Below are positions 36,901 through 58,803 of a stretch of DNA of 64,000 bases, in pieces. The notes beneath the pieces are model-generated. The model was not told where the DNA came from and made no database searches. It saw only the letters and a program-made list of their open reading frames with translations. Source of the DNA: Protoeuglena noctilucae (lineage: Eukaryota); contig OY253673.1 of the NCBI GenBank assembly GCA_958009085.1, forward strand, positions 1,302,001-1,366,000, read 5' to 3'. Each line of letters begins with the position of its first letter. Position 1 is the first letter of the stretch. The translations under genes were made by a program, and so were the position numbers.

Positions 36901-39900
36901 CCACCTTCCGTGCGCCCCTGCGCGCAGAAGCGGGGGCAGCATGGGTGGCATGGGTGTACAAGGGTGCCAGTCAACTGGGCAGGGGTCGAGCAAAGCGGTG
37001 TAAAGTCAGACCCCATTAACATTTACGTCGTGACTCTGACCCGATATCGTGTGCGCATGGGCTCGTGGGGCGAGCGCTGTGTCACCACACCCGCGCACTC
37101 ACCACCGCGCCTCGGCAGACAGCACGAAGAGGCCGAGGGAGAGGGAAAGGAAGGCCAGGAAGCTGGGCAGCGCGAGGCTGACGAAGCACAGCGCCGTGGC
37201 TGCCACGTAGGTCTTGCCGCAGACCGCCTCGGCCACGGTCGTGATGTAAGCCACCGTGGTGTCGACCGTGTTGTTCAGCACAAGGTCCGCCAGCTTCTTG
37301 AAGAGCATCAGGATGATCTGACGCGCGTAGCCGGACCGCGCCAGGGTCGTCGCCTGCGGCAGACACCACAGTGTTGAGAGGTCGTCAAATGCATTGCGCC
37401 TCTTGCTTTGCATTCCTAGTGAACCCACACCCACAGTACAGTGCGCCACACTTGCGCGCATGCGCATCTCTCGCACCTAAACCTCAAAAAGCGACTGTGT
37501 GTCTTATTTGCAAGTAGCGCTCCCCGACACCCCACACTCCTCACCTCTGCGCCCTTCTTCGCCTCCCCTCCCGCATCCCCAGCGCCGCCCTTGGCCCCCG
37601 CAGTGGCCCGCGCCTGCGTTGCCCGCGCCGCCACCCGCGGCGACAGCAGTGACCCCGCCTCTCGCAGTTGCGAGGGCGACCGGGAGGGCGGCATGGTTCC
37701 CGTCCGCACTAGCGCACCCCTCGGTGCTTTGGGCACAGGGTCCACTTGCTCCTCGTCCGCGATGTCCGGCGGGAGCACCGACAGCCCCCCGGCCTTGAAA
37801 TTTGCCATCTTGGCTGGGGATGACAGCACGGTCTGCAACCGCCTGTCGCTTGGCACCTGCACCACTAACCCACGCCCCGCCGTGCTGCCCGGCCCCCGCG
37901 CCCCGGCCCCCCCCGCGGAGTCGCTGGCCGGCGCGATCTCCTCCGGAATTCTCGACACCTGCCGCCGCAGGAAGCCCCCTCCCTGGGGCACCACCGACCG
38001 CTCGCTCGCCGTCACGGACCCCTGTCGCGTGTTGCGAGGGCCGTCCTGGAAGCCACCCCCCTCCATCCACCCCAGCACATCGTACTGCAACAGCAAAGAC
38101 CAGGACAAAGGTCATGGCAACACTCTCACTCCAATGTCACGGGCGCTCTGTGTGCAACGGATGCGTACTAACACCACAGCCATCAATGCCACATGCGCAC
38201 ATCGCGTGCCGCCCCTCGCCTCGTCTTCGCTGCTCTCGAGTTCGTCCTCAAAGACGATGTCCGGCTCCGTGACGCCGAGCACCTGCCGAGCCATCTTCTC
38301 AGAGATACCGTACTGCGCCGCCTGTAGGACCATCGTGTCCTCTGCCCTCACCACCACGTGCTCGTGCCCCACCGCGCCCCTCGATTCCTGCGAATAGGAA
38401 TCGAATAGGAGCGATAGATGGGAAGATACGTGTGCTTCGCCCCACCCTGTGCGCCAACGCCACAGTCGCATTCATTGCCGCTGCTGCGTTCGATTCGATC
38501 ACTACAATGCTCAAACCAGATACCATCCATGGCACGAGTCCTCATACCCCATCGCAGCGCACCTGCTCCTTCGCGCGCGCGTGCAGCCACTGCTTGCTGG
38601 CCAGCGCCCCGATTGCCACGTACAGCCCGCACAGAGCCATGGCGTGCAGCACCCTCGGGACCAGCTGGTATGCCTTCAGCGACGCACTGATCTCGTACAG
38701 ACCCAGTCTGCGGGGGAAGGCGCACCCGCGCATCGCTACCACAAACGCCGTCCAACTCAGTGACACAGCACGTGAGCCCTGCTGCGGTCGGCGCGTCGCT
38801 GCCGGCCCGCACTCACCCGAGCCCCATCTGCAGCGGCAGCCTCTTCCGGAACTCCGGGATCTGCCAGAGGTACTGCAGGAGGCCGTAGAGCAGCGTGTAG
38901 ACCTGGAGCAGGCGGAACTGGTAGGCACGCACGGGCAGCTGGTAGCCCTTGCCCCAGTGGAGCACCCCTGCGGGGACGAGGAAGGCAAGGAATGCGTGTC
39001 AGGGCAGGCATGAAGAGGGCGAAATGGCTTAGAGGTACTCCAATCTGCTATGGGTGGAGAGGGTTGTTGCTAGTGAGTGTGAAGAGCAGGGCATCGCACC
39101 TCTCACGACGAGGGCCGTGTAGGGCAGGGAGAGCGTGCTGGGCCACGCGAGGCCGCAGACGACGATGCAGACGGCGGTGAGGATCTGGAAGGTGCCCACG
39201 CGCTGGTAGCGGTAGGGCTTGCTGTCGAACCCTTTGGCCCCGATGGCCTCGCGCAGGAAGACGAGGTTGTAGTTCTCGTGGAGCAGCGACTTGGCTTGGA
39301 TCAGCTGCCGGGGCGACAGGAGCAGGAGGTAGTGGTGGCGCTGGGCGTGGGCGAGGAGGTCGCTGTGACGCAGGAGCTCGCGCGTGCTGGCGATGAGGAG
39401 GAGGAGCTGCGGGACGAGGTACCGCGCCCACTCCGTGCTCCGCGACAGTTCCGAGAAACCCATCACGCGCACCACAGTCGCGGCGGCCGCGGTGTGCGAC
39501 ACCTGCGGGCATTTGCGTCGTTGCGGAGCGTGAGGGGTCGCCGGGCTCGCCCGCTCGGCGCCCGCGGGTCTCGCTGCGCAACGAGGATGCAGCTGAGACG
39601 CGTCTCACCTTCGCGCCCAACGCGTAGCAGACCTGCAGCGCCATGTTTGCGAGGAAGTCCAGTAACGTGACCGCCAGGACCGCAGCGGGCAGGGCGCGCA
39701 TCCACGCGACGAACGCGTACGTTGTCCGGTACCGTGTGCAAACGATGCCATAGACCATGAAGAGAAGCATGTAGACGAGCCCGACGATGGAGAAGGAAGT
39801 CAGCACCTGCGCGCGAGGCCCGTGAGCGGTGTGCTGGAGGTGCCTTCAACCCCGGATGGTCCAGACTCCTCGATCTCGCAATTTGGGATAGGCGGGTGCG

Positions 39901-40151
39901 CCCCCGGCTGCCGCGCGCCTCACCCGGGCGGCGAGGAACACGCCGAAGGCGAGCGTGGCTGGGTTCATCACCACGGCCCATTTCTTTCGGATAGACATCA
40001 CCGTCGCCTCGTCCACCTCGTTGGTGACGGCGCCCGTCGGCACATCGCTCGTCGGCAGAACGGGCTGCCTGCCGCTGCGGAGGCTCCACCGCGCCGACAT
40101 CTGCTCGCAAGGTGCAAGAGTGGGACCTTTCGGCGGGGAGATGGGCGACAT
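21995..40151 (-). CDS. PIEZO: Piezo-type mechanosensitive ion channel, ~29 exons, roughly 4,100 aa (start uncertain)
   Basis: Many transmembrane segments. Piezo signature IPFVFELRHLLDWACTLTTLRFSDWLLIEDI and ALQLRSGYP; inner helix SISGLYLGVVWAVGKFVR; C-terminus DDIYIARAEGDLEMEEELFWTLVTIYRVPSVLFELTRKKLK-TGA. Confidence 0.93.
22149..22240 (+). repeat. (GTGTGG)n hexamer microsatellite, ~14 copies, adjoining the last PIEZO 3' splice site
   Basis: Read directly; reads (CCACAC)n in the transcript sense. Confidence 0.95.
24055..24268 (+). repeat. Degenerate (GAGT)/(GAGG) repeat in a PIEZO intron (C-rich in the transcript sense)
   Basis: Read directly. Confidence 0.8.
25921..26000 (+). repeat. Degenerate AGCATGTR octamer array in a PIEZO intron
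   Basis: Repeated agcatgtg/agcatgta units. Confidence 0.75.
31900..32283 (-). repeat. 68-bp minisatellite: 5 intronic copies, each containing the PIEZO exon end and 5' splice site, plus the genuine junction
   Basis: Core TACTCGTACGTCATGCA (+ strand) starts at about 31923, 31991, 32059, 32127, 32195 and 32266; the last is exonic. Confidence 0.92.
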
Positions 40152-40715
40152 GCGTTGTACGAGAGCGTCATCAGCACCGCGCAGACGCAGGGATCCCAAG
40201 GTCGCCGCGACACAGGCATTCGACGTCACCTTGGCTGGTCCTCAGCCACTGGGCACGTCCCCCAAGCGCTTCGTCCCAGCGAGTCCCCGATGGCCTAGAG
40301 GCCCTCAACCCGAGGCCATCTCACAGCATGTCTCGCCGGGATTCAGTCCCCGCGCGTGCAGGGGGGCTTCAGAGGACTCCACATTCACACCGGTCCCAAC
40401 TCTTGCTAACACAGGCAGCCACCGCACTTAAATGTCATATGTTGAAAGATCCACGGTCCGTTTGCATCGACAACGGCGGAGCGAGTTGTTTTCTGACAGG
40501 GGTAGACCCCGCGCGTCCCAGCGCAAGCCGAAACAGGCGTGACGGCATCGCGTACAGTACACATTGCATGCAGGAGTCAGGAGCGATCACCGCCCGGCCG
40601 AGCTGTCCGCCGCCGGGCGCGGCAGTCCTTTGAACCGTGGAGGCGGAGGCCGCACGAGCACGCCGCTGGGGGAGCCGCTGGCCGCGAGACGCCCCTGAGC
40701 GGGCGCGCTCGTGCC

Positions 40716-43700
40716 ATGGATCCCGATGGAATCGACCGGCAGGCGCAGGGTGAGTGGGAGGACGGGCGCTGGCCCGCTCGCGCATGCACGCTCCTCCGGC
40801 AGCGTCGCTAGCGCGCGCACTCGCAGGCCTGATGGATGACGTGCCAGTCTACGGCTGGATCCTTGATGGGGAGCCCCCGGGTGGCCAAGCTGAGGAGTCC
40901 GCAGCGGAGGACAGCGTGTCGGCCTCGCATCTGGAGGTCCCGGAGGCAAGCCGACGCACCGGTGAGGTCGACAGGGACGCCAGCAGCTAAAACCAAAGCA
41001 AAGGAAGGCGCAGCAATCGATGCGGGCCCGTGAATTCTCTCGCAGAAGGGCAGGAGACGCAGTCGCGCCTGGTGCGGCAGAGCGCCCTGGGTGACGCTGA
41101 GCAACGGGCCCGGCAGTTGTTCGAAGAGCACTATGGCAAGTCTCTGCCCATGGGCGTGGAGCTCCGGAGCATGAGGAGGAACCAGGAGCAGAGGGGTGTC
41201 CGGTGCGGACCGACAAAGCCACCCTGCACAGCACGTCTCGCTCTGACACTCTAGCCGCACCTGCGCTGACCACGCGGCCCTTCCCCGAGCGCAGGGAGTC
41301 CTACACCCTCGAGCACCTCCGCCGCCTGGTGTTGTGGGAGAGTAAGCGCCCGCTGTTCTCGACCAGCAAGGCCCCTCACTGCTCCAAGTTGGGCCACCCA
41401 AATACCTGCAAAACGTGCACGTCATGCCACTTTTGCCGGCAGAAGACGATGGACATCAAGACCTTCTGTCCCTGCGAGCACATCGACGAGGTGGCGGGGT
41501 CCATGCGTGGCGCGTGGTGCCGGAGTTGCCTGGAGGGGCGCATGGGGGAGGACTTCGAGGCCACGATGAGGCGAGTTGTTTGCACAGGGGCTAGGAAATG
41601 TCGAGTTCCCGATGAGGTGAGTGGGCTGGCAAGGGGCCAGTATATGTCGAGGTAACGACTAGGTGCTGAGCGCAGCAGGGGAGTGGGTGCATGCCGCGGA
41701 TGTTGAGATGACGCCCGTGTGTGTTCTTAGGGTGCGGCTGTCGGAAGGGTGAGGGTGTGGCCGGGTTGATGGCACGCAGGGCGTGCAAGGAGGGCCGCTG
41801 GCGGTGCCCGTGCTGTCGCGACATCTGCAATTGCTCGGGGAAGACGTGCGTGCGGGGCAAGCGGAACTGGGATACGACGGGCCAGCTGGCGGGCGAAGCG
41901 AGGAAGTGAGGAGCGCATGCCATGCCACGTGAATGCTTCCTGTGCATGTCATGGCTGGGTGGTGGTGGCAGGGCTCGCACTCGCACAGCTGACGCGCGAC
42001 CCGACCCTTTCCGCAGGAACGGGTTCCTGTCCGCGGCTCATTACCTCATCCTGACGGCGCTGGCCAAGCATGGCAGTGTGAGGCCCGTCGACCACGTCCC
42101 GGCGCATGCGTACGGAACAACCAAGAGACTTCAAGCGCAGGTGTGTGAAAGAGAGGCCAAGGGATTGTTCAAGAGTTTGACGATTTGTGAGGCTACTTAG
42201 CTGTTTGTTGGAACCACTGGTGGCATGGGTGACTGGGTGGCAGGCTGGCGGGCTGCGAGGCTGACGGTGGCTTGCCCGCTTGAGTGCTGGAGAGCCGCAG
42301 AGACCATGTGTTGCAACCCACTCCCCACGCTGCCGCAGCCGTCGGGCCCCGTGGCTCCCGCGCAAAGGAGGCGCGAGTCGGTCAAGAAGCGAGTGCGGCG
42401 GGAGAAGGCGGCAGTGCACGCGGTGCTGATGGTGAGAGTTGCTGAGGCAGACAGTCGGTGGGTGGCCGTACGCTTTGCACTGGGCTCACAGACACCGCCT
42501 CATGTTCGCGCCCACCCATGCCTCTCCCGTGCTTGTTGTCTCCAATCCTCGCCTAGCCCCGGCCTCCTCCCCTCGTCCCCTCCCCAGGCGCCATCGTTCC
42601 GGGCCCCCGACCTCTCTCCCTTCCGCGCCCTGATGTGCGCCTTCAGCCTCTTTGCGCCCATGGACAGGCACGAGGACAACGACGACACGCCTCTGGACGA
42701 ATTCGCAGACGCCGACGGGGCGGCCCAGCAGCAGCCAGCACCGGCGAGCCGAGGCATCGTCGTGGGCCGTGCCGTGGTCCCAGGCAGGGTCGCCCCCGCG
42801 GGTCTGGCCCCTCCCGCACCTGCCCCGCGACAAGCCATAGGCCCTCCCGGCACGTCGGCGGCCGCCGCGCGTGCCGTCAGGTCGCGCACTGGCAGGGCGG
42901 AACCAGGAGTCGATGCCTTGGACCCCATGGAAGCAGCCGGGTTCCGCCATGAGGGCGCCTTGCCAGCCCAGCTGCCCTCGGAAGGCCCCAGTTGGGGTGA
43001 CGCGCCCGCAGCAGTGGGACCCTTGATTGGCGGCGCTGGGCTGAGGCCCCGCGAGGGGACTGCAGGCGCTGCCGGGGTCGTCATGCCTCTGGTGCCGCTC
43101 CCTGCTGCCACCTCCACCGCCACCGTCACGACTGGTGCGCCCGGTGGGTCCGGTGTCGCCACGGCTGGGCCTTCAGACGACGACCTCCTGGCCCTGGACG
43201 TCGACAGCCTGGTTGGCGGTGCCAGACCGATGGCTGAAAGCGTCGATGGCCCAGTGGCGGCTTCCCAGGGGCACTCGGTGGCGGCGGTCACGGCCGACGC
43301 AACTGTGGAGGGCATGTCGCCTGGCCCTTTCATAAGCCCAGACGATATGAGGGGCGTGAACCCCGCTCGGCAGCCGCTGAGGACGCTGGGCGGGGTCCCT
43401 GCGGTGCGCGACAGGGCGGCGGGGTGGGGCGGGGTGGTGAGCGTGACGCAGCAGGACGGAGGGGGCGAAGGCGGGGCCGGCAGGGTCGTGGTGTGGGACG
43501 CGGGGGCGGTAAACATGGCTCTCGGGGCGCTGGAGATGGCCCAAGTGGCGCAGGCGGGGGGCTTTGGGGGCCGGCAGCCGGCGCCAGTGTGGAACATGCC
43601 CCCGCAAGAAACACGCGCGTCGGGCCGGGAGGGCAGTGGCGTGCGGGATCCTGTTAGGGCGGAGACGGGGCTGTATTTCGATCGGGCGCAGTCGTCGGGA

Positions 43701-46700
43701 GTGGGCGGGGAGACGCGGGGGGAGTCGGGCGGACATGTATTATTAGTGGGAGTGACGGGGGCTGGGGTGGGGGCGAGCAGCGGGGGCAGCGTCGCGCGTG
43801 GCAGGGCAGTGCCGGTCCCGGTCGCTTTGGTGGAGCCCGGGGCTTCGGAGGTGGAGCAGCAGGCGGTGTGGATGGCGCCTCTGGTGCAAATGAGGTGACA
43901 CGGAAGGAGTAGGCGTGGCTCTGCTGATCGCTGTGCCTCTGTCCTGCATCAACCTCAATGCAAACCTCTTCTGTTAGATGCCATCGCTACTGGGTAATTG
44001 CCCTAGTATCTCATTCCCAATGATCGACTCCCTCGCAGGGAGGAGGCCCGAGCGACGCGGCGTGCGGCCCGGCAGGTGGTGCGCAAGCGCAAGGGCCCGC
44101 CGCTGAAGCGACCGGGGGATCCCAAGCGCCGGGCCGGCACAGAGCGGCCGCGACTGGCCCCGGCTTTCTCGTCAGGGCAGGGCGGCCGGGCCGTGACGGA
44201 GCGGCGCGAGCGTGCACAAGCGCCATCCACGTCCGCGCAGCCCTCCACCTCCGGGCGGGGATCGGAGAGGACGCAGTCGGGGCACAGCAGGCCCAAATCA
44301 CGGGGCCGTGTTCTGCTGGACGATTCGGATTCGGAAGATGAGGTGGACATGGGTGGGGATGCCGACGAGGTGTCCAGCCCAGGGGTCGGGAGGGGCCAGG
44401 CGTCACAGGTCAGCGTGCCTGCCACGCAAGAGGAACAGGATGCGCGTATGGAGGCGAGCGAGGGTGCGGGGGTGGCACGGGGTGCATTGGGGCGCGGGGT
44501 GGGCGCGGACGGGTCTGCAGGAGAGGGCGACATGGGGTATGGGCCGGGGAAGCCCGAACGCCCTGCAACTCAGCTGGAGGGGTTCGAAGTGGATGGGGCG
44601 GATGAGGACGAAGGCGATGGATTCGACCTGGAGTTGGAGCTGGCAAAGGGGGACTGCGCGGCTGCAGTGGAGGAGGCCAATGCGGTGGTGGCGGTGGTCA
44701 AGGAGATGGGCAAGGTGAGGGTGCAAGTGTGAGTGGAGTGGGTATGGGGGGTAAGGAAGGGTGTTCGCACGGTGAGGGTGAGTAGCTGCAGCGTCGCATA
44801 TATACGTGCCCACAGTGTACAATTTGCTTTTTCTGACCCTTCCTCTGACCCCAGACCTGGCTCGAGCAGTCCGCGGACCCCAACGCCTCGGCGTCCTTTG
44901 AGGCGGTGTGCAAGAAACAGCTGACGGACCTGCAGAACCGACTGGCCGAGCCGAGCCTGGGCCTGGCGTCCTCCGTCTGCTTTGATGTGCTCAACGCAGA
45001 CGAGTGCACGGCGACGCAGGCATCGGCTGCGTCCACGCTGCTTCATGTGCCCGAGGGCAAGCGCAGGCGAGGGGCAGCTAGTGATGCCAGAGACGGCGCT
45101 GGCAGATGTGGACCGATCGCATGGACCAAGACAGCGGCTGGTTTTGTGGGTGGCGTCAGGCGTGGTCGTCCCTGCTGCCTACCTGGGTGGGGGGCCCTGG
45201 GTAGGTGGCACTGCGTCACCGCCTGTCTTGCTCATCCCGCTCCGCCTTTCCTACCCCCTCAGGGTGCCAGTGTGGCTCCTGGACCGGATGCTGGAGGTGG
45301 CGGGGGTGGTCTTTGCGTGCCTGCCCCTGCCAGTGCTGCGTTCCCAGTGCAAGGTGCTCCTGCGGTGGTTCTTCTCCGGAAAGACATTTGTGGACTTTGC
45401 CAGGAGCCACCCGGACCCCCAGACAAGGTGCGGTGATGCCTCAGAGACACGCATGTTGGTGTCGCGTGGGTGCGATGTGTTGGTAAGCGCATGCTGCCTC
45501 CTGCTCCACGCCCGTCCACGGCCACCGCGGCCACTACCGGCGTCTTGCACATGCCCGCAGAGCCATCTCCGCCCTCGTCGCCACCCTCCGCACCCTGTCC
45601 GAGCGCGGCGCCGACCACTCCACCGTCGCGCCCGTCGCGGCCGAGCTGTTCCGCCACCTGGACTGCGCGCGGGCGCAGTGGCACGCGGCGCTGCACGCCC
45701 GGTCCTGCCTCGTGGTCCAAGCCACCCTCGACGGCATCCCAGACGTGGTCTTCCGACGCGACCCGCACCCCGTGACCCTGTGCCACCTGGTCCTGCCACC
45801 CGCCGAGGACGACGAGAGCGCCCTCCGTCGCGCCGCCGCCGCCGACACCGTCCTCGCCATGACCACCAACGTTCTCCTGTCCGCCCTCGCCCCCCTGGCC
45901 GGCCTCTGCCTCGGCACCCTCGTGCGCGATGAAGCGGGGGCCGTGGTGGCCTACGAGCTCACGCCGACCCTCGCGCCCCTGCTGCGCGCCCTCTGCGGCC
46001 CGGAGCTCGTGCGCCTGCTCTTTGAGCCCGCCCTGGGAAAGGCGAGGGGTCGCTGAGTGGGATGCTCAGCGAGCGCTTGTGTGATGGCCTGTGTGCGGTA
46101 TCGTTGCCGAGCCCTGCGGACCTGGCACCCACCCGGCGCCTCAACGGCCCGCCCTGCCGCTCCCGCAGGCCTCCGTGCGCCACGCCGTCATGTCTATCCT
46201 CACCCAGGCCGCCTGCCACGCCTCCCTCATCCTCCAGCACCAGCCACGCCACGACCCCTCCAACCCCCCCAGCGTGACAGCCGAGGACGCCGCGGCCGCC
46301 CTGCGCGCCTGCTCCGACCTCGTGCTCCCCGCTTTGGAGCTCTTCATCCGCCAGGACTTCCCAGCGAGGGCCGAGCCCGGCATGGCTGCCTCGACCGCCA
46401 CCCCCGACCGAGCCGCCGCCTTCGCCGCCCAGCATCTCAACCCGCAAAGCGATCCCTGCGCCGTCGCCGCGTTCGGCGCAGCGCCCGCGGTGCCCGGCGG
46501 CCTCGGCCGTGCCGCCCTGGAGTGCCGGGCCCACGTGCACGGCGCGATTGTGGCTGCGTCGGCATGGCTGCCCGGCTGCCCCGATGCAGAGTGGGCGTCC
46601 GTGGAGGCCTTCGCTTTCATGCACCCCGAGGGCGCACGCGGTGGCTGGCGGCGCCTCTTCGCCTCCCCCTACCGAGCTGCAGCGCTGGCCTACACCTTTG

Positions 46701-49700
46701 CGGCGGCATCCAAATGCGCATCCGCGGTGCGCGCCCGGACCGCCACCGTCGCCAGCCTCACCTCTTGCTGGCTCATGGCGAGTGGCATGCGGGAATATCA
46801 TCCACAACGTTGTGTCGCAATCTCTCACAGTTACTTACTGCTCACACTCCCTTACCCCTCACAGCCTCTTACCGCCCACACGCCACCCTTCCCCACCCGC
46901 AGGCGTGCCTGGACATCGGCGTGGCCCCAGAGCTGGCCGCAGCCACGCGCATACTCAGTCATCCCTCTTTGCTAGGTACCAGTCTCTTCCACGCCGTCCC
47001 CGCCATCCCTGTGCGTGACGTCCAGGGCCGCGCCCGCACCGCCGCCGTCCGCCAGGTCCTCTGCAACGCCGCGTGGCTAGGCGTGGCCTCACCCCTGCGA
47101 CCCGCCGACTGCCTGGCGGGTGCCGACGTGGCCCTCCTACGCGCCTGGTCGTCGGTGCGCTGCACGGGCGTCGATCGCGCCGACACATGGACCGCCGCGG
47201 CCTGCCGGTGCCTACACGCCGCGCTCACGAGCCCCGGGCTGTGGGACGCAAACAGTGCCGTTATTAGCAGTCTCTGGGGCCAGTGGGCGGCCCTGGCTGT
47301 GGCCGCACCCGCCTGGCACAAACACCAGTGGCTGGAGGGGCTGGTGGACGGGGGTGCGAGTGTGGGGGAGGGACAGGGCGACGGTAGCGGTGGCGTGGCG
47401 GGGGAGTGGGAGGCGGCGCGACGGACGCTGCGCGCGGGGCTGGGGACGGTGCTCCGTGAGGCGCTGACATCGGCGGAGGTCGGGGCAGCGAGCGGCGGTG
47501 GGGTCGTGGACCTACTCGCCAGGGTGAGGACGCACCTTGCAGCGCTTCGATAGTGCCGTTGGCATGAAATACTTGCCACGTCTGCATTCCTTGCCTCCCG
47601 ACCCTGCCCGCAGAGCCTATCCCACCCTGCGCCGGGCGGCCTCCCTCCGTTAGCGGCTGCGGTGGTGTTCGTCATCGATGCAGCCCTGCGCATTGCGGGG
47701 CTTCCCAACCCGCGCCGCTCCGAGTCCCGAGCTCCTAGTGTGGGAGGCAGAGGTGGTGGTGCAGTTGATGGGGATGCCGGTGGTGGTCCGGCGGGTGGTG
47801 CGACGGCTGGGTACTCGGGCCGTGACCCCTGGGGGGACGCTACGGTGGCAATCGTGGCAGAGGCCGTGGCGGGCGCTGGCTTCAAGGCGGCGGCGCTCGT
47901 GGCCGGCTCCCTGTGCCGCGCTTGCATGCGGGAGTGGCGGCGGGTGCCTAATGGGATGGGGCGGGCGGTGGCCGCAGCCAAGCTGGTGAGGGCCGGCAAC
48001 GCATGCCATTACCCATGTCGTGCATGAACGCAGGCGCGGTACACTTGCTCAGCCACACATTCCCTGGCCCTCACTGGGCAACCCTGTTGCTGCCACAGCG
48101 TGCGATCCCAGCCCTTACCTGCCAACCCTCTCTCTTACACACACAGGGATGGGCCCTCGTCGGGCATTGGCCCCCCGACTCGGACGAGGCGCGGGGATGC
48201 GCCGCACACCTCTTGGGCCCGACTGCAGAGCTCCTCACTGACCTGCTCCAAGGCACACCGCCCCCGCCCCATGCCGGCCCGCACCCTGCGACCCACGTCG
48301 CCCGCCTCCTCGAGACCCACACCCCGCACGTACCCATGCTCTGCGCCGCCACACTCGGGCCGCAACCCCCACCCGCTGCCAGCCCCAACCCCGCGCCCCT
48401 GCGCCACCTGTCAGGCGTCACCGCCTCCGCCTTCCACCCCTGCGCCGCTGCGACCCTGGCTGCGCTCCGGGACGCCTGCGTGTCCGTCGCGCTGCGGTTC
48501 AGCGGGGCACCGAACCCGTCCGCAGCTGCGGCAGCAACCGGCCCCGCCCGTGCTCCGGACCCCGCCCTTCTCCGGGCCGTCGATGAGCTTCAGGCCACCC
48601 AAGAGATGCAAGCGCTCTCCACGCAAGCGGCCACCCAGGCACCCGGGCTTGCGAGGGGCGGCGGTGACTCCCCCGCGGCAGCTGGGCCCCTGACAGCCGC
48701 GTCGGCCCAGGCGCTCGCCCACTGCCTGTCCCTCAGCCTGGGCCTGTGCTTTCCGTCCGAGGCCTCGGGAGACGTCATGCGGCGCCAGCACTTGTCGGGA
48801 CTGCTGTGGCGCGTGGACCACATCTCCGGCGACGACACGCCCGATGGCAGTGCACGCGCGGGGGTGGCGGGGGCGAGAGCTGGGGCAGTGGCAGGGACAG
48901 TTGCGTGCATGGAGTGGTACCCGGCGATGTCGAAGGCAATTCTGCTCCTGGGAGCGGTCGCCAATTACGGGGGACGCGACTTGGTGGGTGGCTTCTTCCA
49001 ATACACCCACCCGGCCCTGAATGAGCTTATGACATCGGGGCATGTGGGGCTGGAGCCGGAGCAGGCCCTGCGCGTGCGCAAGCAGCTCTCCAAGGTGGCT
49101 GAGACGCACAACAAGCTCGTCGACGCGTGCGGGCTGAGCAGGGAAGCGCGGCGTGAGCTGCGGCTGCAACTAAGAGTGCCAGAGCCGGTCGGGGAGCAGC
49201 GGCCGGATGTTGGTGGGGGCGGAGGGAGGGGCGGAGGGGTGAAGTCGCGCGGCGGGAGGGCACTGCAGCGGCGGGACGGGAACGCGGCGGGCGGCAGCGA
49301 CGCCGGGCACACTCGCAGGGCCACAGAGGGCGGGGCAGCACGCACGCCTCCGTTGGGCGCGGCGGGGGGTATGGTCGGGGCTGGGGCAGCGGAGGCGGGT
49401 GCCTCTGTCCGCGAGGTGTGCGTGGGGAAACCCGCGCAGCGTCGGGCGATGGTTATGGAGATGAACGGGCGGCCAGTGCACGCCCTTAAGATGGTGGGGT
49501 GCGGGAGCGGAGCGAAGAAGGTAGTAGGGAAGGTGCTGTCTGTAGAGTGGGTGGAGGTGCCAGGGGAGTCTGGGGAAGCATCGAGGGCCTTGATGGTGGG
49601 AGTCGAGGCAAAGGACCCCGATACCCAGCAGCTGTGCAAGGCCGAGGTTGAGTTCAGGTGAGGGCGGCAGTGGGTAGCTGGCCGCGCAGGGGCGGCCATA

Positions 49701-49914
49701 AGAGCATGAACGACACTGTTCTCGTGTCTCCGTGTGCAGTGGGGGGTCCGAGGAGGCGCTGGATGAGTGGCTGCAAGAGCATAAGCAGTGGGTCGCGGGG
49801 CGTCGTTTGGGGAAGAACGTGCAAATGGCAGTAAAGGGAGGCAACGTGTTGGTGACTCTGCCGGGGTGGAACGACCCGCAGTGCAAGTGCAGCTGCCGAC
49901 TGCCCCACAAATGA
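40716..49914 (+). CDS. Large protein (~2,350 aa, ~17 exons) with an N-terminal CDCA7-type zf-4CXXC_R1 zinc finger
   Basis: Spliced finger: SCHFCRQKTMDIKTFC...RGAWCRSCLEGRMGE...WRCPCCRDICNCS...TGQLAGEARKNGFLSAAHYL. All downstream junctions are phase-compatible through to the TGA at 49912-49914. Confidence 0.75.
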
Positions 49915-50414
49915 ACGGGGCTGCGATGGGCGGTGTTGGCTGTAGTCACCCTGTGTGGTTGGGTGTGAGACATCAGAGTGATGCATTGCGTTCGAGCGCA
50001 GCAGTTAGCGTTCGCGTTGATGCCTGCGTCATTCAATCAGGACAGCAACGGCATGGACACACTCGCGCCCCGTGTTGTCCTCCCCACACGGACAAGGCGC
50101 CCTCCACAACACAGCATGCGATCACAAGGAACAAGCACGCACAACAACACCCTCATCCTCCGCAAACATCGTTTTGTCACGTGCACAATAACTGCCATCA
50201 CACGCTTGAATAGGATAGACACGCACAACCATGCGACAGCAGACATGATAAGGGCGGGATGCTGCAGGGGAAACATGGGTCTCTGGCAAAGGTAGCGCTC
50301 CTGAGCTGATATTATGACTACTATACAGCTGCTGACGGATCACGACATGGCCAGTCCATGGCGGATCATGAAAGGGGAGAGTCTATCACTAATGCCTGGC
50401 GAGTAGTAAACTGT

Positions 50415-52019
50415 TCACAGCTGGCTGAGCACGCTGCACGCCGTGTTGGACACTGCATTCGTGGGGCTCAATGCCGTCGTGGCCTTGCAGTACTGTGGGC
50501 ACAGAGGGCGACGGCCACAGGTGGGTCAAACGCAGCTGGCCGTGCGTAATGTCGAGGTGCTGTCGCACGGTGCTGGCAGCCCCACTCCACAGACAACCCC
50601 ACTGGACATCCATCCCCATCCTTGCGCCCCCGCACCTGGGTGCGCGTGCAGAAGCCCTGGTTGAGCCAGTCCGCCGCCGTTGTCTTGACGCAAGTGACGA
50701 AGGTCCTGCGAGCGATGGACCCACACAGGCCGAGTGGGTGCAGGGGATCCGGGCAGCGCAGGCGGTGCTCAGCTTAACGCAAAGCGCACGCACGTAGGGT
50801 CGCCGGACGCGCAGTCGCACTTGGTCGACACGCTCTGGCCTTGGTTGTCCTGCGGCGGCAAAGGAAGGTGCGTCACGGCCTGAATGCGCAAGCCCGCACA
50901 TAGCGTAACCAGCCGCTGCCACAGTCCCCCACTCACCGAGCAAGGGTTGTAGTCTCCGGTCAGGGGGTCCAGCGTCGGCGGGGCCGGCGTGGTCGCGGGG
51001 TAGGTCACTGTAAGTCCGTTCATAATCACGGAGCCTGGCGTGTTGTCCATGAGGAGCACTGGTGTCTTGACACCGCCATTCGAGAACGTCGGGGCCGTGC
51101 AGGTGAAAGCTGTCACGCCAGTAGTGGCCCCGAACGAACCCGCGTACTGAACGTTGTTGCACGTTACGCCGTCCACGGTCGCAGTGTAGCGCGCCGTGCT
51201 GGGGCCCAGGGTCCCCGCGAAGAGCAACTGGGGTTGCACTGAGCCCCCAGAGCAGGGCACCTGGTACAGGACGCCCGTGTCGAGCGTGATGAAGGAAGCA
51301 GTGCTGCCCTGGGTGGTCTTCGCGACGCAAAGTGTCCCGGACACTTCCGCAAAAGTAACGGTCGCGACAACGGAGGCGGCCGTATAAGTAGACACGTCCG
51401 TAACAGTGACCGTAACGCTGGTACGAGGAGGGACGCTGGACACGGCTCCCGGCGTGCACTCGAGGTGCGTCGCCGTCAGGGTGGAGGTGTCGACGGTGCA
51501 TGGGACACGCTGGGCAGCCACGTACGGGTCGCTCACCAGCACCTTCGTCGTCGAGCCGCTGTTGAGCGACGTGAACGCGGTCCCCGTCAGGGTGAGTACG
51601 GCGCCGCTGGCGGGGCAGGGCGTCCCGTCGCTGTTGCAGTAGGCGCTGGAGATGACGGGCAACACCTCCACCAGGAGAGGGGCACTGGCGCTCCCCGCCC
51701 CCGTGATTGAGACCGCGACTGTCACGGATGTCGACTGGGTGATGGACGAGATGGCTGTGCTCGGGTCGCACTGCAGCGAACCCCCATCGCTGCTGACGTA
51801 GGTCACGGAGCAGTTGGTGCCGCCCACGGTGACGGTGATGGCGGACGCCGTCGTTCCAAACTAGCTGCCCTGGACAGTGAGCGACGTGTCGATGGTCGTG
51901 CAGAAGCCGGTGGTCTGGTTGCAGCCCAGCGCAGAGATGGTCGGCGTCTGAGCAGAGGCCACCCCGACGGCGGCCGCCAGCAGCGCGACGGCCAGCGCCA
52001 CCGCCCGGTAGAAGGCCAT
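50415..52019 (-). pseudogene. Secreted IPT/TIG-domain, Thr/Ser/Cys-rich surface protein, 4 exons, with one in-frame TAG at 51861-51863 (nonsense allele, sequence error or readthrough)
   Basis: Signal peptide MAFYRAVALAVALLAAAVGVASA. IPT-like repeats LTVQGS*FGTTASAITVTVGGTNC and LTLTGTAF. Spliced end CTRTQ|YCKATTALSPTNAVSNTACSVLSQL-TGA. Confidence 0.65.
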
Positions 52020-52550
52020 GGTGCGCGTGTGTGGTCCTGCGGGGGCCACGATGGGGCTAGCGGTGACGGGATGGCCACGATAACTGTCAGTACGACTGTT
52101 GGCACTCACGAGCCATTTCCGGACTCGCGACGCCCGCGAACGACGAATGATGATATTTGGCATGGACTGGCCGCGCGCAAATTTCCTTAAACAGCTTGAG
52201 GCGCGCGAGGGCCGATGCATTGGCGAGCGGGTCCTGTTACAGCCCCGCTGGCTCAGAGACTCGACGCAGCGGCACACGGCGCGCTATAACAGACTCATGG
52301 AAAAGAACAGAGCAGTTAGACTCACCTGTGAACGTGAAATGCCCACCGTACTCGCACGTCCGCGTTCCACCTACCCGAGCGCGCCAGAAAAAGGCTTAAC
52401 CACCGATCCGGTGCAGGCGAGACAGGTGCGGATGCCGGAGAAGCATGGTATGGCTTTGCTTTCACGAGCCAGCAGGCGTCCTGGCAGTTTGGAATGCCCC
52501 ATGAGAAACGTCAGTGACGGTCACATGCCGCCCTACAGATCGCAGGCTCG

Positions 52551-55500
52551 TCAGCGCGAATCGAGCTGTCCCATAACCCTCCCCGCCACGACCCACTCCG
52601 CGAAGCTCGCCTCCCGCGCCACGTCCTGCACCGGCGCCATGTCCTGCTCCCCGACGTGCCCGCGGTCGTCACGAAAGTCGAAAAGCACCGGACCACCGTG
52701 CGCATCCCCATCCGTGGCGCACGCGCGCGCCCGGGCCACCCACCTGCGAGGCACCCGACCCGGCAAGCGCTCCATCTACGCGTGACGCCCGCGCCGCACC
52801 CGGCAAGCCCTCTCTCTCCCGACCCCCGCACCGTGGTGCCTGCCTGCGCTCCCATCCCAACCCCACCTGAGGATGCCTGAGACGTCGACATGCTCGTCCA
52901 GCAGTCCCCCCGTGACCAGCACGGGCGGCCACGGCTGCCCCAGTCGCCCTTCGGCGTCGCGGCGAGTGGTGGGCGAGGACGGGAGGTTCCAATAGGGGCA
53001 GCATGCCATGATGCTCCGGATGCCCTGCGCGCGAGCCAGCGTTGTTACGTGTTCACCCCGATGGAATGAGCGAGGAGGCAAGTACGGGCGTGGGCGACCC
53101 ACACATGTCACATAAACGCACGACTCACCTCGGGCGTGGCGGGGTCTCCCCACTCGTCCCTCTCGAGCAGTTCCAGGAGGCCTCGCCGCAGCGCCATGGA
53201 TCCCAGGACGTCCACAAAAGGGCACTGCGCCACCACGCCAGCCACCAGCGCCGGCCGCGCGTTCTGCAATCACTGCGAGTCCGTCAACAACAGGCGCGGG
53301 GCTACCGAGCTGCCATCCATCCCTTCAGCGCCCACCGCTGCCGTCGCAGCAGCACTCACGAGCACGCTGCCCGCCACCACGCCACCCGCGCTCTCCGCCC
53401 TCAGCACCACGCGCCCGGCCGGCGCGACCCCCGCCGTCTGCAGATGCTCCAGGCACGCGATGGCGTCGCTCACGGATGTCCCCTTGTTCCCCTCCCTCCC
53501 CGCCCGGTGCCATCCCCGGCCCTTCTCCCCGCCCCCTCTGACATGCAGCTGCGCCAGCACCCAGCCCCGCTGCAGCATCGGGCCCCACTCCGGGCGATGG
53601 TCGGCGTGGAGCGAGTGGCCGTAGGCGCCGTACACCTCGGCTGCGGCGGCAGGGGAGGGGGCGCATCAGAGAGCTCCCAGGGCAACATGTCAACAGACCA
53701 CGCTTGCTGACACGTTGCCAACCAGAGTGCAGCCCCAATGGCAACCCACCAATGCACCCTGGGGCGTCCACGCCCCGCACCCCCGCCTTCCTCGCCACCG
53801 TGATGGGCACTCGCACGCCATCCGAGCTGACGGCGTGCGAAGCGATCCACTCCAAACCCTGGGGACGCGCGAGTCTAACGATGGGCCGCCTGCCCTAACC
53901 ACAGCCATACCCGCCGCCGCAACAGCGCCTGTGCCACCTCTTGCGCCTCGCCTGGGAGTCTGGGGCGGGCAGCTCTCGTATCGACAGGCGGTAGGCGGGA
54001 TCTCTGAAACATCGGGCAAGGTCGATGTCCACGGGGGTGTCCGGGTGAACGGGGGAGGCCAGCACCAGGCGCAGGTGGGTCTTGCCCAGGTTCGCGCCCC
54101 CACGCACTGAGGCGGCCCAGGCGGGGAGCGGGAGGTCCAGGGGCGCGGGCGAGGCCGCGTCCATGTCCAGCACTGCGGCGGGAGGGTGCGGGCGTGTCGA
54201 GGGCCTTTGCAGCGGGGCGATTGCCTGGCGCTAGGGAAAGCGACCTTCGACAGGCCCGCAACTCACGGGACACGCCCGGGCGCCCGTCCCGCCGCTCCAT
54301 GAGCACGAGGCAGCTGCCGATAAGGTCCATGTCCTCGACGCTGACCCCCGGACGCTGAGGCACCAGTGGCCGCCATGCCTCCTGCCCCGGTCGTGCCACG
54401 TCTGCCACCATCACCGCGTAGTCCTCCGCGCCGCCCGCGTTTGTGAGGATCGCGAGGCGGCCCCGGTGGTGCTGCACGAAGTACTCCAGCCCCGCGGTGC
54501 GGCCCTGCACCAGTGCTGGGTCGGAGACGGGGCGGGCCGCGTCTAGCAGGTGCACCTCGCTCGAGGAGCGGCTGTTGCTGTTGATGATCACAAAGGCATG
54601 GTCCTTGGAGCCTGCGGAGAGGATAAGAGGGTTCGGATCGGCCGCGGCGGGGTGCAGCGCGGCGTCTCGCTGCGACGTCACGACGCTCGCCTGCCACCTC
54701 GACCACGCAGCCCTCGCAGTCCTCGATATGGACGCACACGTCCTGCGAATGCGCATTCCCGATCTCGTGCACGAAGACCTCCCGCGGCGCCCCGGCGTCG
54801 TCCGGCCGCGCGTACACCACGAATTGCGAGTCATGGGAGAAAGCCACGCTGGACGCGGGCACCTCCGGACCCTCCCCGACGCGCTTCCCGGCCGCGATGT
54901 CTCGGATTGACAGCACAAAACCCCCGGCCGCGTTCCTGGCCGTGCGCAGGAACGCGGCCAGCCTGTGGTCGGGGCTGACGACCAGCGCCTTAATGCCCAC
55001 CGCGTCGTCCGCACCGCCGACCTCACCCAGGTCTAGCACCACCTGCAGCACATGAAGACCCGCAGTCGATTGAAGGGTCATCTGGGCTCATGCGCGCGTC
55101 CCTGGTGGGCAGGGCCTCGCTTCGTACCTCTTCGTGCTGCGGGTCCGCGACCCGTCTCCGCTTGTACACCAGCGGCCTCTCCGGGACGTCCTCAACGAAG
55201 TAGACAAAGTCCCCCACTCTTTCTGGGAAATGGGTTCCACTGACGCCCTCCGCCCCTCGCATCTCCTGCATGTACGCCTCCTCGCTTGTCGCAAAGGCCG
55301 TGCGCACCTGCAAGTGATTCACAGGCGCCTTTGAGCATCACGAACTGGACTTCTGATTTTGAACATGACTGTCCATCCGTCACCTTCTCGAAATATGCCT
55401 TTTCGGCTCGCAGTGCGGCGGCGAGAGTCCGGTTGCGCTCGAACATCCACTTGTACTCGTCCACCCACCGCCTGCCGCCCGCCTCCACGGTGTCTTTCCT

Positions 55501-56207: not shown

Positions 56208-58678
56208 TCAGAGCTCGTCGTGGACGGTCTGGTGCTGGAGGATGAAGGACTTGAAGGCCTCGAGGGTGCGGTCGCCCTCGTAGAGCACCACGTCGCCCGT
56301 CGCCCCCTCCACGAAGTAGATGGTCGGGAAGCCCGTGACGGTGAACTTGCGGTTCGTGACGTCGTTGACCGTCGCGTCCATCTTGGCCACTACCACGTTG
56401 GTCTCCTTGTTGGCCCACCGCGCCACGTCCTCGTACGTCGGCGCGAGGTTCTTGCAGTGGCCGCACCTGCACGGCCAAAAGGGTTGTACAAGTAAGAAAA
56501 AGGAAGATTAAAGCTAGCAGCGGTGTGGGGAGCGAGCGGCGGTGCGCAGTGGTACAGGTGGCGAGCTCTTCGCAAGTCATGCCACCGACGTCGGCAAGTG
56601 TGTCGTGTGCCCATGACCACCCCCCTCGGCTCCCCGGCCAGTCCACTCGCTCACCAGGGCGCGTAGAACTCGATCATGACGTCCTTGCCGCCCATGACCT
56701 CCTCCTCGAACGTAGAGGCCACGATCACACGCACGGGGCCGTCGTTGGACGTAGGGACCGGCTCCGACTTGATATGGGCCTCCAGGGTGCCGTCGATGAC
56801 CCCGCGGGCGAAGGTCTCGATCGCCGCCGCCGTCACGGCCGCGCGGGGGGCGCCGATGAACTTCTGGTCGGTCGCGGGGTTGTGCGCGGCCACGACCGGC
56901 ATGTCGCCCTTCTCAACACCAAAGAAGCCCGCGGCGCGCTCGCCCTCGGCGAAGTTGGCGCCGATGACGTCCGCCTGGCCGTCGAGAGCGCGGGAGGCGG
57001 CGATCACGGCGGCCTTGGTCGCGTCGCTCCAGTCAACCGTGAAGACGATGATCTTGGGGTTGGTGTTGCCGAAGACGCGCTGCAGCGGGACCTCTGCGGG
57101 ACATAAGAGGAGGTGGGGAAAGGGATATGGAATGCAGTTGAGGAAGGGCCGGGTGAGGGCGCTCGGGCGAGGGCACGGGGGAGTCACAAGCAAGGCGCAC
57201 AGATCCGGCCAGGCACAGACATTGACAGGCGCACGCAGGTGGCCCCTCGTAAGCAGCTGTCGTACCGTAGATGGGGTCGGGGCTGAGCATGACGAGGGCG
57301 GGGATGGCGGCGTCCTGGACGAAGTTGGAGAGCACTTCGGCATCGTCAAAAGGCCCAGAGAACGTGACGACGGGGTCATCGAACGACCGCACCACCACGA
57401 TGGGCGCGCCCCCGTGATTCATATTCTTGGGGAGCTGGGCGTGCGAGTCGACGTGCGCGAACTTGTACGGGCCCGAGCGCAGGTCATCTGCGGGCGAAGG
57501 AAGCCACAGGCGATCGCGAAGGCACTCATGACACGCGAAAGCTGCTGGCCACCGCAGCCCCGCTGGCAGTGGTGGCTCAGGACGCAGACGGCGCCGACGA
57601 TCGCATCAAGACGCACCTGCCACGATGTTGTGCGCCTCGAGGGCAGCGGTGCCCACGGCAAAGACGACCACTGCGTGCTTGTCGATGAGCTTCTCCGCCT
57701 CTGCAGCCGAGGAGACCTTCAGGGACGCGGGGCCCGCGAGAGACGTCAGGTACTGCGAGCAGTAGCGGGGTCGGATCGCGCGGGAGGCGCGGCGACGGCG
57801 CGCGGAGGCGTGCGCGATGCCCGAGGGCCCACCTGCACGATCCCAGCGGCATCGCGCGGCCCGGCGTACTCCTGCGCATCGTTGACGTTGCCCTTACGGA
57901 AGATCTTGATCGTGGGGTACCCGCGGACGCCGTACTTGGTCGCCAGGCCCGTCTCGGCCGTGGCGTCCACCGCGGCCAGCTTCACCTCCACCGCGAGCTC
58001 CTCCGGCGGATCGTTGGCGAAGGTCTCCGCGGCAGACTTCCACTCGGGCTCCAGGCGCTTGCAGTGCCCGCACCAAGGCGCAAAGAACTCCACCGCGATG
58101 AAATCGGAACTCCCAACAACCTGGGGGCAGGGGCCGGCGCGGGAGGGTCCCGGGGGCACGCTGTGCGACGCCGGAGGCACAGCGGCTCCATCTGCATCGA
58201 CACGGCTGGTATGGAGCGGGTGAAAAGCGCGGCGCGGCTTCCCAGCGGCGCGCGCGACACCAGCCTCGAGGCCGCCCCGCAGCGCCGCGAGCGAGGCCCC
58301 CGGGAATCCAGGGACTTCACCCCAGGCTCGCGGAGAATCAAACACGATGCACCGTGTGCACCGCGAGCCGTGCGGCCCCCCCAGCGCGCGAATTCTGCGT
58401 CGCCAGTCCCAGGGCGACGGTCCCCGGCGCTCCGTGCCCGGATAGCGAGATCCCGCCCAGTGCATCATAAGCACATCCAGACGGTCGGATTCGTCGGGGC
58501 CAAAGCGCTGGAACGGCGCCGGGGGCCTGGTCCGAGTTGGTCCGCACCCCAGCCCCAGCCGATCCCGACCCACCTGGTTGAAATTGCTCTGGGTAAGCGT
58601 AATCACGCTCGCGTGCGCCACCAGCGCCCCCGCCAGCGCGAGGAGCAGCGCGGTAGCGAAGCCTCGCGACAGCTTCAT
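56208..58678 (-). CDS. PDI: Protein disulfide isomerase (a-b-b'-a'), 6 exons
   Basis: Signal peptide, two APWCGHCK active sites (the second split by an intron), GYPTI and GFPTI, IKSEPVP, C-terminal HDEL. Confidence 0.95.
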
Positions 58679-58803
58679 GGTTTCCGCAGCTCAGCGCCCC
58701 GCCTACGCGCGCAGTCAGATGAGGGGAGCGCGGACTCTGGACGCGGGGGCCTAGCGTCGCCCTCCTTGGCGCCCGCTAACCCCGGTTTCGCTGTCAGAGA
58801 ACT

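Follow-up and report, generated by a model that had tools for sequence, protein, structure and literature searches.

CDCA7 is one of only two modules known to sense hemimethylated CpG and is described as a small adaptor for HELLS/DDM1 (PMC11343034). Its zinc finger belongs to the zf-4CXXC_R1 family, whose members have been sorted into classes (PMC10538959). In class I (CDCA7), the finger is C-terminal and there is no other domain. Class II proteins have the glycine equivalent to G294 replaced, and include DDR1-3, with DDT and WHIM1, as well as chromodomain fusions in Acanthamoeba and Taphrina. Class III proteins (plant IBM1 and JMJ24, ~1,000 residues) carry an N-terminal finger and, at the C-terminus, JmjC, and lack all three residues associated with immunodeficiency with unstable centromeres and facial anomalies (ICF) syndrome. 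CDCA7 orthologs are broadly distributed in Archaeplastida, Amoebozoa and Opisthokonta, and the row for the one haptophyte in the table of PMC10538959, as parsed, records CDCA7 as absent and lists just a divergent finger protein. Here we describe a locus of Protoeuglena noctilucae (assembly GCA_958009085.1, contig OY253673.1, positions 1,302,001-1,366,000 of the forward strand; this 64,000-nucleotide stretch is the window) that encodes a CDCA7-type finger and, downstream on the same strand, a long spliced coding region.

The feature studied occupies positions 40716-49914 of the + strand, counted from the first letter of the window, which is GC-rich (0.61-0.71 in 2-kb steps) and intron-rich. We lean towards the view that the finger and the downstream region form one + strand gene of 17 exons (40716-49914), encoding a CDCA7-type protein of ~2,336 residues; one consistent model accommodates the start at 40716 as well as the stop at 49912-49914 (Table 1). 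RNA data came from three marine metatranscriptome runs (X1-X3), each matching the window in part, and a DNA-like run (X8) was near-identical to it. The spliced contigs were from X2, and their joints were shifted to GT/GC..AG within the alignment tolerance. Contigs from X1 and X3 had no joints anywhere and crossed introns proven by X2 unspliced, possibly as DNA carry-over rather than as retained introns. Eight + strand joints are RNA-proven: 40961/41046 upstream, and seven in the downstream region. Loose ends of X2 contigs at 40507, 40635, 42410, 43155 and 44095 were also considered; their five consensus strings are all absent from the window, and we set these ends aside as chimeric or unrelated, with short words in common.

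The + strand translation contains CRQKT, RG, CLEGRMGE, WRCPCCRDICNCS, TGQL and GFLSAAHYL, together with an NCSGKTC insertion and extra upstream Cys/His residues, all of which a sequence-only reading of this DNA had listed, the motifs as CDCA7 hallmarks. Its assignment to a CDCA7-type finger was borne out as well. PF10497 (zf-4CXXC_R1) matched the open reading frames (ORFs) 41101-41652 (E 7.5e-9, 36.1 bits, profile positions 3-54 of 99) and 41712-41906 (E 2e-7, 31.5 bits, profile positions 46-88), both above the gathering cut-off of 22.7 bits. The two pieces lie on consecutive, collinear + strand exons, with an intron between the finger halves. Coverage of the Pfam profile ends at position 88 of 99, and on its own the ORF of exon 6 had no match; the helix tail (TTGQL...GFLSAAHYL) is coded by the end of exon 5 and exon 6, and it aligns with the relatives described below.

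The best matches among solved structures were chains of human CDCA7 (8yv8_K, 8tlk_A and 8tle_A). In the alignments to 8yv8_K (E 5.9e-5 for the first finger half and 0.0096 for the second; the chain is human CDCA7 residues 264-371, and residue numbers were taken as chain position + 263), the equivalents of R274, Q275, G294 and R304 are retained in exon 4 and that of S330, the S of ICNCS, in exon 5. In human CDCA7, selectivity for hemimethylated CpG comes from R274 and Q275, with Q275 telling hemi- from fully methylated sites; R304 and S330 make contacts with the DNA backbone, G294 has a supporting role in zinc coordination, and selective binding needs the helices C-terminal to the cysteine-rich part (PMC11343034). 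The Q275 equivalent here is the Q after R in CRQKT. By the criterion of PMC10538959, the three ICF residues are all conserved: the R of CRQKT, the G of MRGAWC and the R of CLEGRMGE. Nine of the eleven signature cysteines align in place with human CDCA7. The fourth is displaced (C-x-C; C-P-C here), a shift also reported in Arabidopsis class I (PMC10538959), and the eleventh and last stands two residues further along (CNCSGKTC), beyond the printed alignments.

Both cysteine deviations are common to five relatives (P0001-P0005; 42-46% identity, 354-511 residues) found by comparing the finger exon with proteins of 323-2000 residues (768 candidates); the relative search with this exon covered proteins up to ~2,000-2,175 residues. 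Within the finger, P0003 and P0004 depart from P0001, P0002 and P0005 past GENI and past CSGANC, and these two ORF calls seem to run on into introns; the first break is near the position of the exon 4/5 intron here. A metagenome scan with the finger exon as protein gave 236 pattern matches, none of them confirmed. On sequence criteria, we regard it as confirmed that the finger is CDCA7-type: class-I-like by the criteria of PMC10538959, with two cysteine deviations, and CDCA7-like at every residue that could be checked. The sequence-only reading had placed it at the N-terminus of a longer protein. In the one-gene model it occupies residues ~146-255 of ~2,336, which is near the N-terminus and not at it.

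Ten exons between 42588 and 49914 join into one frame of 2,042 codons without a stop. Seven of the nine introns among them have RNA joints with GT/GC..AG ends, all keeping the frame. The positions of the other two (44715-44854 and 47986-48146) were set from frame and consensus, the latter being consistent with an X2 contig that matches from 48146 and whose 12 preceding letters belong elsewhere. The RNA joints put exon 45263-45427 in frame 0, not in the frame of ORF 44849-45433. GC content is 0.805 at third codon positions (GC3) compared with 0.586 at second positions (GC2). The downstream region is confirmed as a real, spliced, expressed coding region.

GC..AG introns account for three of the eight RNA-proven + strand joints (introns 45067-45262, 46042-46168 and 46778-46902; donor G/GCGAG) and for none of the six joints of the two neighbouring - strand genes. 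The predicted intron between finger exons 4 and 5 (41571-41779) is of the same type, with donor gcgagt. Such introns are known from other algae: in Emiliania huxleyi, 56% of junctions are GC-AG and intron retention is frequent, to which GC-AG splicing has been suggested to contribute (PMC4028052), and two pelagophytes have 14-17% GC-AG (bioRxiv 2024.10.30.620910).

Whether the finger belongs to the downstream region turns on 41.4-42.4 kb. The stretch 41388-42355 is without any RNA contig from X1-X3, and so no joint links exons 4-7; this lack of cover speaks neither for nor against the link. The long spliced + strand region to which the sequence-only reading had joined the finger is there, but the in-frame splice from the finger is without RNA support. 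That reading had also named transcript ends near 42.2 or 43.9 kb as signs of two genes. An end near 43.9 kb is ruled out by the in-frame RNA joint 43894/44039, which bridges that position, while 42.2 kb falls in the RNA gap.

On splice-site, frame and composition grounds, one gene is likelier than two. All six hand-placed upstream acceptors read cgcag, like the RNA-proven ones, and the hand-placed donors (gtgagg, gtgcgg, gcgagt and gtgaga) resemble RNA-proven donors. Phase 0 is common to exon 6 (whether it ends at 42077 or, with the alternative donor at 42141, at 42140), exon 7 and exon 8. The coding potential of exon 7 is 0.48 bits/codon (coding mean 0.34; maximum of 0.10 over 375 intron windows) with GC3 0.87, and its flanks score -0.10 and -0.42. 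It aligns, at a similar distance, with the basic 'AQRE..RRRR' tail after AHYL in P0001, P0002 and P0005, and it carries one of just two basic clusters in the entire model. Over 42201-43895, frame 0 stays open, and the 156 bases of 42432-42587 contain no in-frame stop, so that the frame is kept whether they are an intron or are read through. Exon 8 is thus reached by any transcript that has exon 7 in frame, with or without splicing.

Several observations weigh against a single gene, in addition to the gap in RNA cover. Every RNA joint comes from one run (X2), with one contig each and a depth of 2.4-9.3. Contigs from X3 (42482-42701) and X1 (42577-43171) begin within the proposed intron 42432-42587, upstream of the acceptor at 42588, and these starts also fit a separate transcript beginning near 42.3-42.5 kb; they are not decisive, because X1 and X3 are jointless and pass unspliced through proven introns. 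Three ATGs (42306, 42633 and 42660) are possible starts of a second gene, the last two with a 5' untranslated region (UTR) of a few hundred bases. The resemblance between exon 7 and the tails of the relatives is weak. When P0001-P0005 were compared with 40001-50500 by tblastn, the finger alone was significant and the rest was low-complexity noise. The coding score is not specific either, because the stretch 40590-40715 just before ATG 40716, which has no in-frame ATG and is presumed to be 5' UTR, is coding-like at up to 0.46 bits/codon, compared with 0.48 for exon 7. This stretch is either 5' UTR whose composition resembles coding sequence or a piece of an upstream exon that went unrecognised, and we dropped the score as a decisive test. 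The locus is compact: ~60 bases separate the convergent 3' ends (50001 and 50064). Finally, the extension has no relatives in our searches that would allow a cross-species test of the fusion, and a metagenome scan with an exact 50-base stretch of exon 7 had zero matches.

These points would be accommodated by two tandem genes, a reading that we consider somewhat unlikely: a short CDCA7-like gene running from 40716 to a stop at 42198 (~300 residues, C-terminal finger), followed by an orphan gene of ~2,000 residues starting at one of the three ATGs just named. Reading through past exon 6 to the stop at 42198 does give the textbook CDCA7 layout, UTR-like sequence is able to score as coding, and among the relatives found, the nearest are 354-511-residue ORF calls. 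Those lengths are weak evidence for a short protein, because the calls were made on unspliced DNA and two of them (P0003 and P0004) visibly enter introns. The arrangement would also have to fit a 3' UTR, a promoter and a 5' UTR into at most 108-460 bases, the lower figure being the distance from the stop at 42198 to the first downstream in-frame ATG at 42306 (the start of ORF call P0007). The short form would be without any basic cluster. Exon 7 is flanked by consensus sites with phases 0/0, combines a high GC3 with the top coding score, and matches the relatives' post-finger tail in position and basic character.

Both forms might instead come from one locus, with retention of 42078-42338 giving the short CDCA7-like protein and full splicing the giant one. 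We find this doubtful. The in-frame stop at 42198 arises solely on retention of that intron, unspliced contigs over proven introns are common in X1 and X3, and GC-AG introns are present here as they are in E. huxleyi, where intron retention is high (PMC4028052). Against this, zero reads lie over the intron 42078-42338, and the unspliced contigs may be DNA carry-over and not retained introns. Very improbable, to our minds, is a downstream frame that is no protein at all, whether because GC-rich DNA left a frame open by chance or because the transcript is non-coding. Its low complexity, the lack of a domain or relative, a low Atlas recognition of 1616 for exon 16 and low structure-prediction confidence would suit such a reading. 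It is opposed by seven independent RNA joints that all keep the one long frame, by in-frame stops on retention in twelve of the sixteen introns of the full model, by the clear third-position GC bias, and by an Atlas recognition of 2630 for exon 12, above the 2300 mark.

If the single gene is right, most of its product has no counterpart in our searches. Fourteen ORFs were scanned against Pfam at E up to 1, and the twelve non-finger ORFs had no family; a Peptidase_M15 match in one ORF was a sub-threshold chance match (11.6 bits, cut-off 27). Exon 16, compared with 1.84 billion representatives, matched solely its own ORF call (P0006), whose cluster comprises five unnamed ORF calls on unspliced DNA. 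Exon 8 matched its own ORF call alone (P0007) among proteins of 310-989 residues and nothing among those of 763-2175 residues. Atlas look-alikes for exons 16 and 12 gave no usable match, and a sequence search of the PDB with two downstream pieces had best E values of 0.18 and 0.33. In AlphaFold2 (AF2) single-sequence predictions, run with no alignment, the beta-rich end had a predicted local distance difference test score (pLDDT) of 47.5 with strands at the very end, and exon 13 was all helix (pLDDT 41.7); at these scores neither fold is confident. By composition, residues ~300-960 are rich in A, G, P and S with one RKRK cluster and acidic runs, and residues ~1,020-2,100 are more hydrophobic. 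The sketch of the sequence-only reading, running from disordered through helical to beta-rich, is reasonable, as far as such weak predictions carry.

The protein would begin with an acidic and helical N-terminal part, in which the helix-like region of exon 3 is a candidate HELLS-binding helix (exon 3 aligns with the pre-finger region of P0001, P0002 and P0005), followed by the class-I-like hemimethylation-sensing zinc finger (HMZF) and a short basic exon resembling a nuclear localization signal (NLS). Then would come ~650 low-complexity residues, ~1,100 mostly helical residues and a small beta-rich end. By analogy with human and Arabidopsis CDCA7, the finger may bind hemimethylated CpG, and it could tether the large lineage-specific extension, as a scaffold, to newly replicated methylated chromatin. 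Retention of intron 42078-42338, with its in-frame stop at 42198, might let this one locus also make a canonical short protein of CDCA7-like form (~300 residues). Taken together, a GC-rich marine alga would have a class-I-type hemimethyl-CpG reader embedded in a lineage-specific scaffold (~2,300 residues), with one retained intron switching between short CDCA7 and giant, and with the reader bringing along a large effector or scaffold of its own, whether in place of HELLS recruitment or in addition to it; we offer this full picture as speculative and on balance unlikely to hold in every part. If the fusion is real, a known reader occurs in a new form, the hemimethylation sensor can be wired to other machinery, and there is a handle on the inheritance of DNA methylation in marine algae. 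If there are two genes, the locus holds an orphan gene and, beside it, a CDCA7-like gene that is ordinary but for a finger subtype slightly out of the usual.

Table 1. Exons of the one-gene model and an alternative start, in window positions.
Feature	Position	Strand	Basis and remarks
Exon 1	40716..40749	+	ATG 40716; donor gtgagt fits acceptor ctcgcag at 40826; hand model, no RNA joint
Alternative start	ATG 40784	+	Would have no first intron
Exon 2, acidic N-terminal region	40827..40961	+	RNA joint 40961/41046 (GT..AG, X2); coding score positive in frame
Exon 3, helix-like region before finger	41046..41202	+	5' end RNA joint; 3' donor gtgcgg placed by frame
Exon 4, first finger half (CHFCRQKT...RG...CLEGRMGE)	41295..41570	+	PF10497, 8yv8_K; GC donor gcgagt like RNA-proven GC donors
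Exon 5, second finger half (WRCPCCRDICNCSGKTC...TTGQL)	41780..41905	+	PF10497, 8yv8_K; outside RNA cover
Exon 6, C-terminal helix of finger (GFLSAAHYL)	42017..42077	+	Acceptor tccgcag, donor gtgagg; aligns with relatives' AHYL helix
Exon 7 ('exon D'), basic, NLS-like, 93 bases	42339..42431	+	Acceptor gccgcag, donor gtgaga, phases 0/0; no RNA joint
Exon 8, low-complexity, A/G/P-rich	42588..43894	+	3' end RNA joint 43894/44039; RNA contigs from 42482-43171 onward
Exon 9, basic (RKRK) and acidic stretches	44039..44714	+	5' RNA joint; 3' donor gtgagg placed by frame
Exon 10	44855..45066	+	RNA joint 45066/45263 (GC..AG)
Exon 11	45263..45427	+	RNA joints on both sides
Exon 12, helical	45561..46041	+	RNA joints 45427/45561 and 46041/46169 (latter GC..AG)
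Exon 13, helical	46169..46777	+	RNA joints on both sides
Exon 14, helical	46903..47523	+	RNA joints 46777/46903 (GC..AG) and 47523/47614
Exon 15	47614..47985	+	5' RNA joint; 3' donor gtgagg placed by frame
Exon 16, helical part, G/A-rich linker, start of beta-rich end	48147..49657	+	X2 contig 48146-48880; RNA joint 49657/49740
Exon 17, stop 49912-49914	49740..49914	+	RNA joint; X2 contig continues to 50001

Other genes lie in the window around this locus. The - strand gene at 50064-52325, whose 3' end faces that of the + strand gene (50064 and 50001), has an IPT/TIG match and four RNA-proven introns (CT..AC joints). On the other side, a spliced - strand gene at 38580-39921 (joints 38707/38817 and 39803/39921) is divergent from the finger gene and has long ORFs without a Pfam match. 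Further away are an RRP5-like rRNA-processing gene (15097-19633, + strand), with S1 and RRP5 OB-fold matches in three ORFs, and part of a Piezo-type channel gene (23064-23756, - strand; Piezo cap domain, E 4e-11). Matches to a prolyl oligopeptidase beta-propeller, thioredoxin and WD40, all on the - strand (53878-55087, 57749-58690 and 7213-7938), mark ordinary nuclear genes.

The sequence-only reading had proposed a possibly undescribed methylation-reader architecture. The 2,336-residue model indeed fits none of the zf-4CXXC_R1 classes described in the passages of PMC10538959 consulted. The fusion itself is a probable one, and the term 'undescribed' stands only if it is real. Among the matches listed in the literature on CDCA7/zf-4CXXC_R1 evolution and algae, none concerned a giant algal CDCA7-type protein. 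The finger sequence differs from that of the E. huxleyi finger protein XP_005791698, and it has CNCSGKTC where the Micromonas class I finger has the usual CNCSFC (both listed in the eLife supplement). As in class III IBM1/JMJ24, the finger would lie near the N-terminus of a long protein; unlike in that class, all three ICF residues are kept and, at E up to 1, neither JmjC nor RING was matched by the twelve downstream and other non-finger ORFs. As in class II, it would be joined to other chromatin-related sequence, but the G294-equivalent glycine is kept and there is no DDT, WHIM1 or chromodomain match. The finger itself is class-I-like. Unlike class I CDCA7, the fourth cysteine is displaced and the last stands two residues on, and a single gene would place ~2,070 residues C-terminal to the finger; length and finger position are class-I-like if the gene ends at 42198 and not in the 2,336-residue model, with no other Pfam domain either way. 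In common with CDCA7/CDCA7L and plant CDCA7 (class I, HMZF; PMC10538959, PMC11343034), the locus has PF10497, the R274, Q275, G294, R304 and S330 equivalents and four CXXC-type pairs, and like class I CDCA7 it shows an N-terminal helix-like stretch before the finger and a putatively helix-forming GF..AHYL tail after the cysteines.

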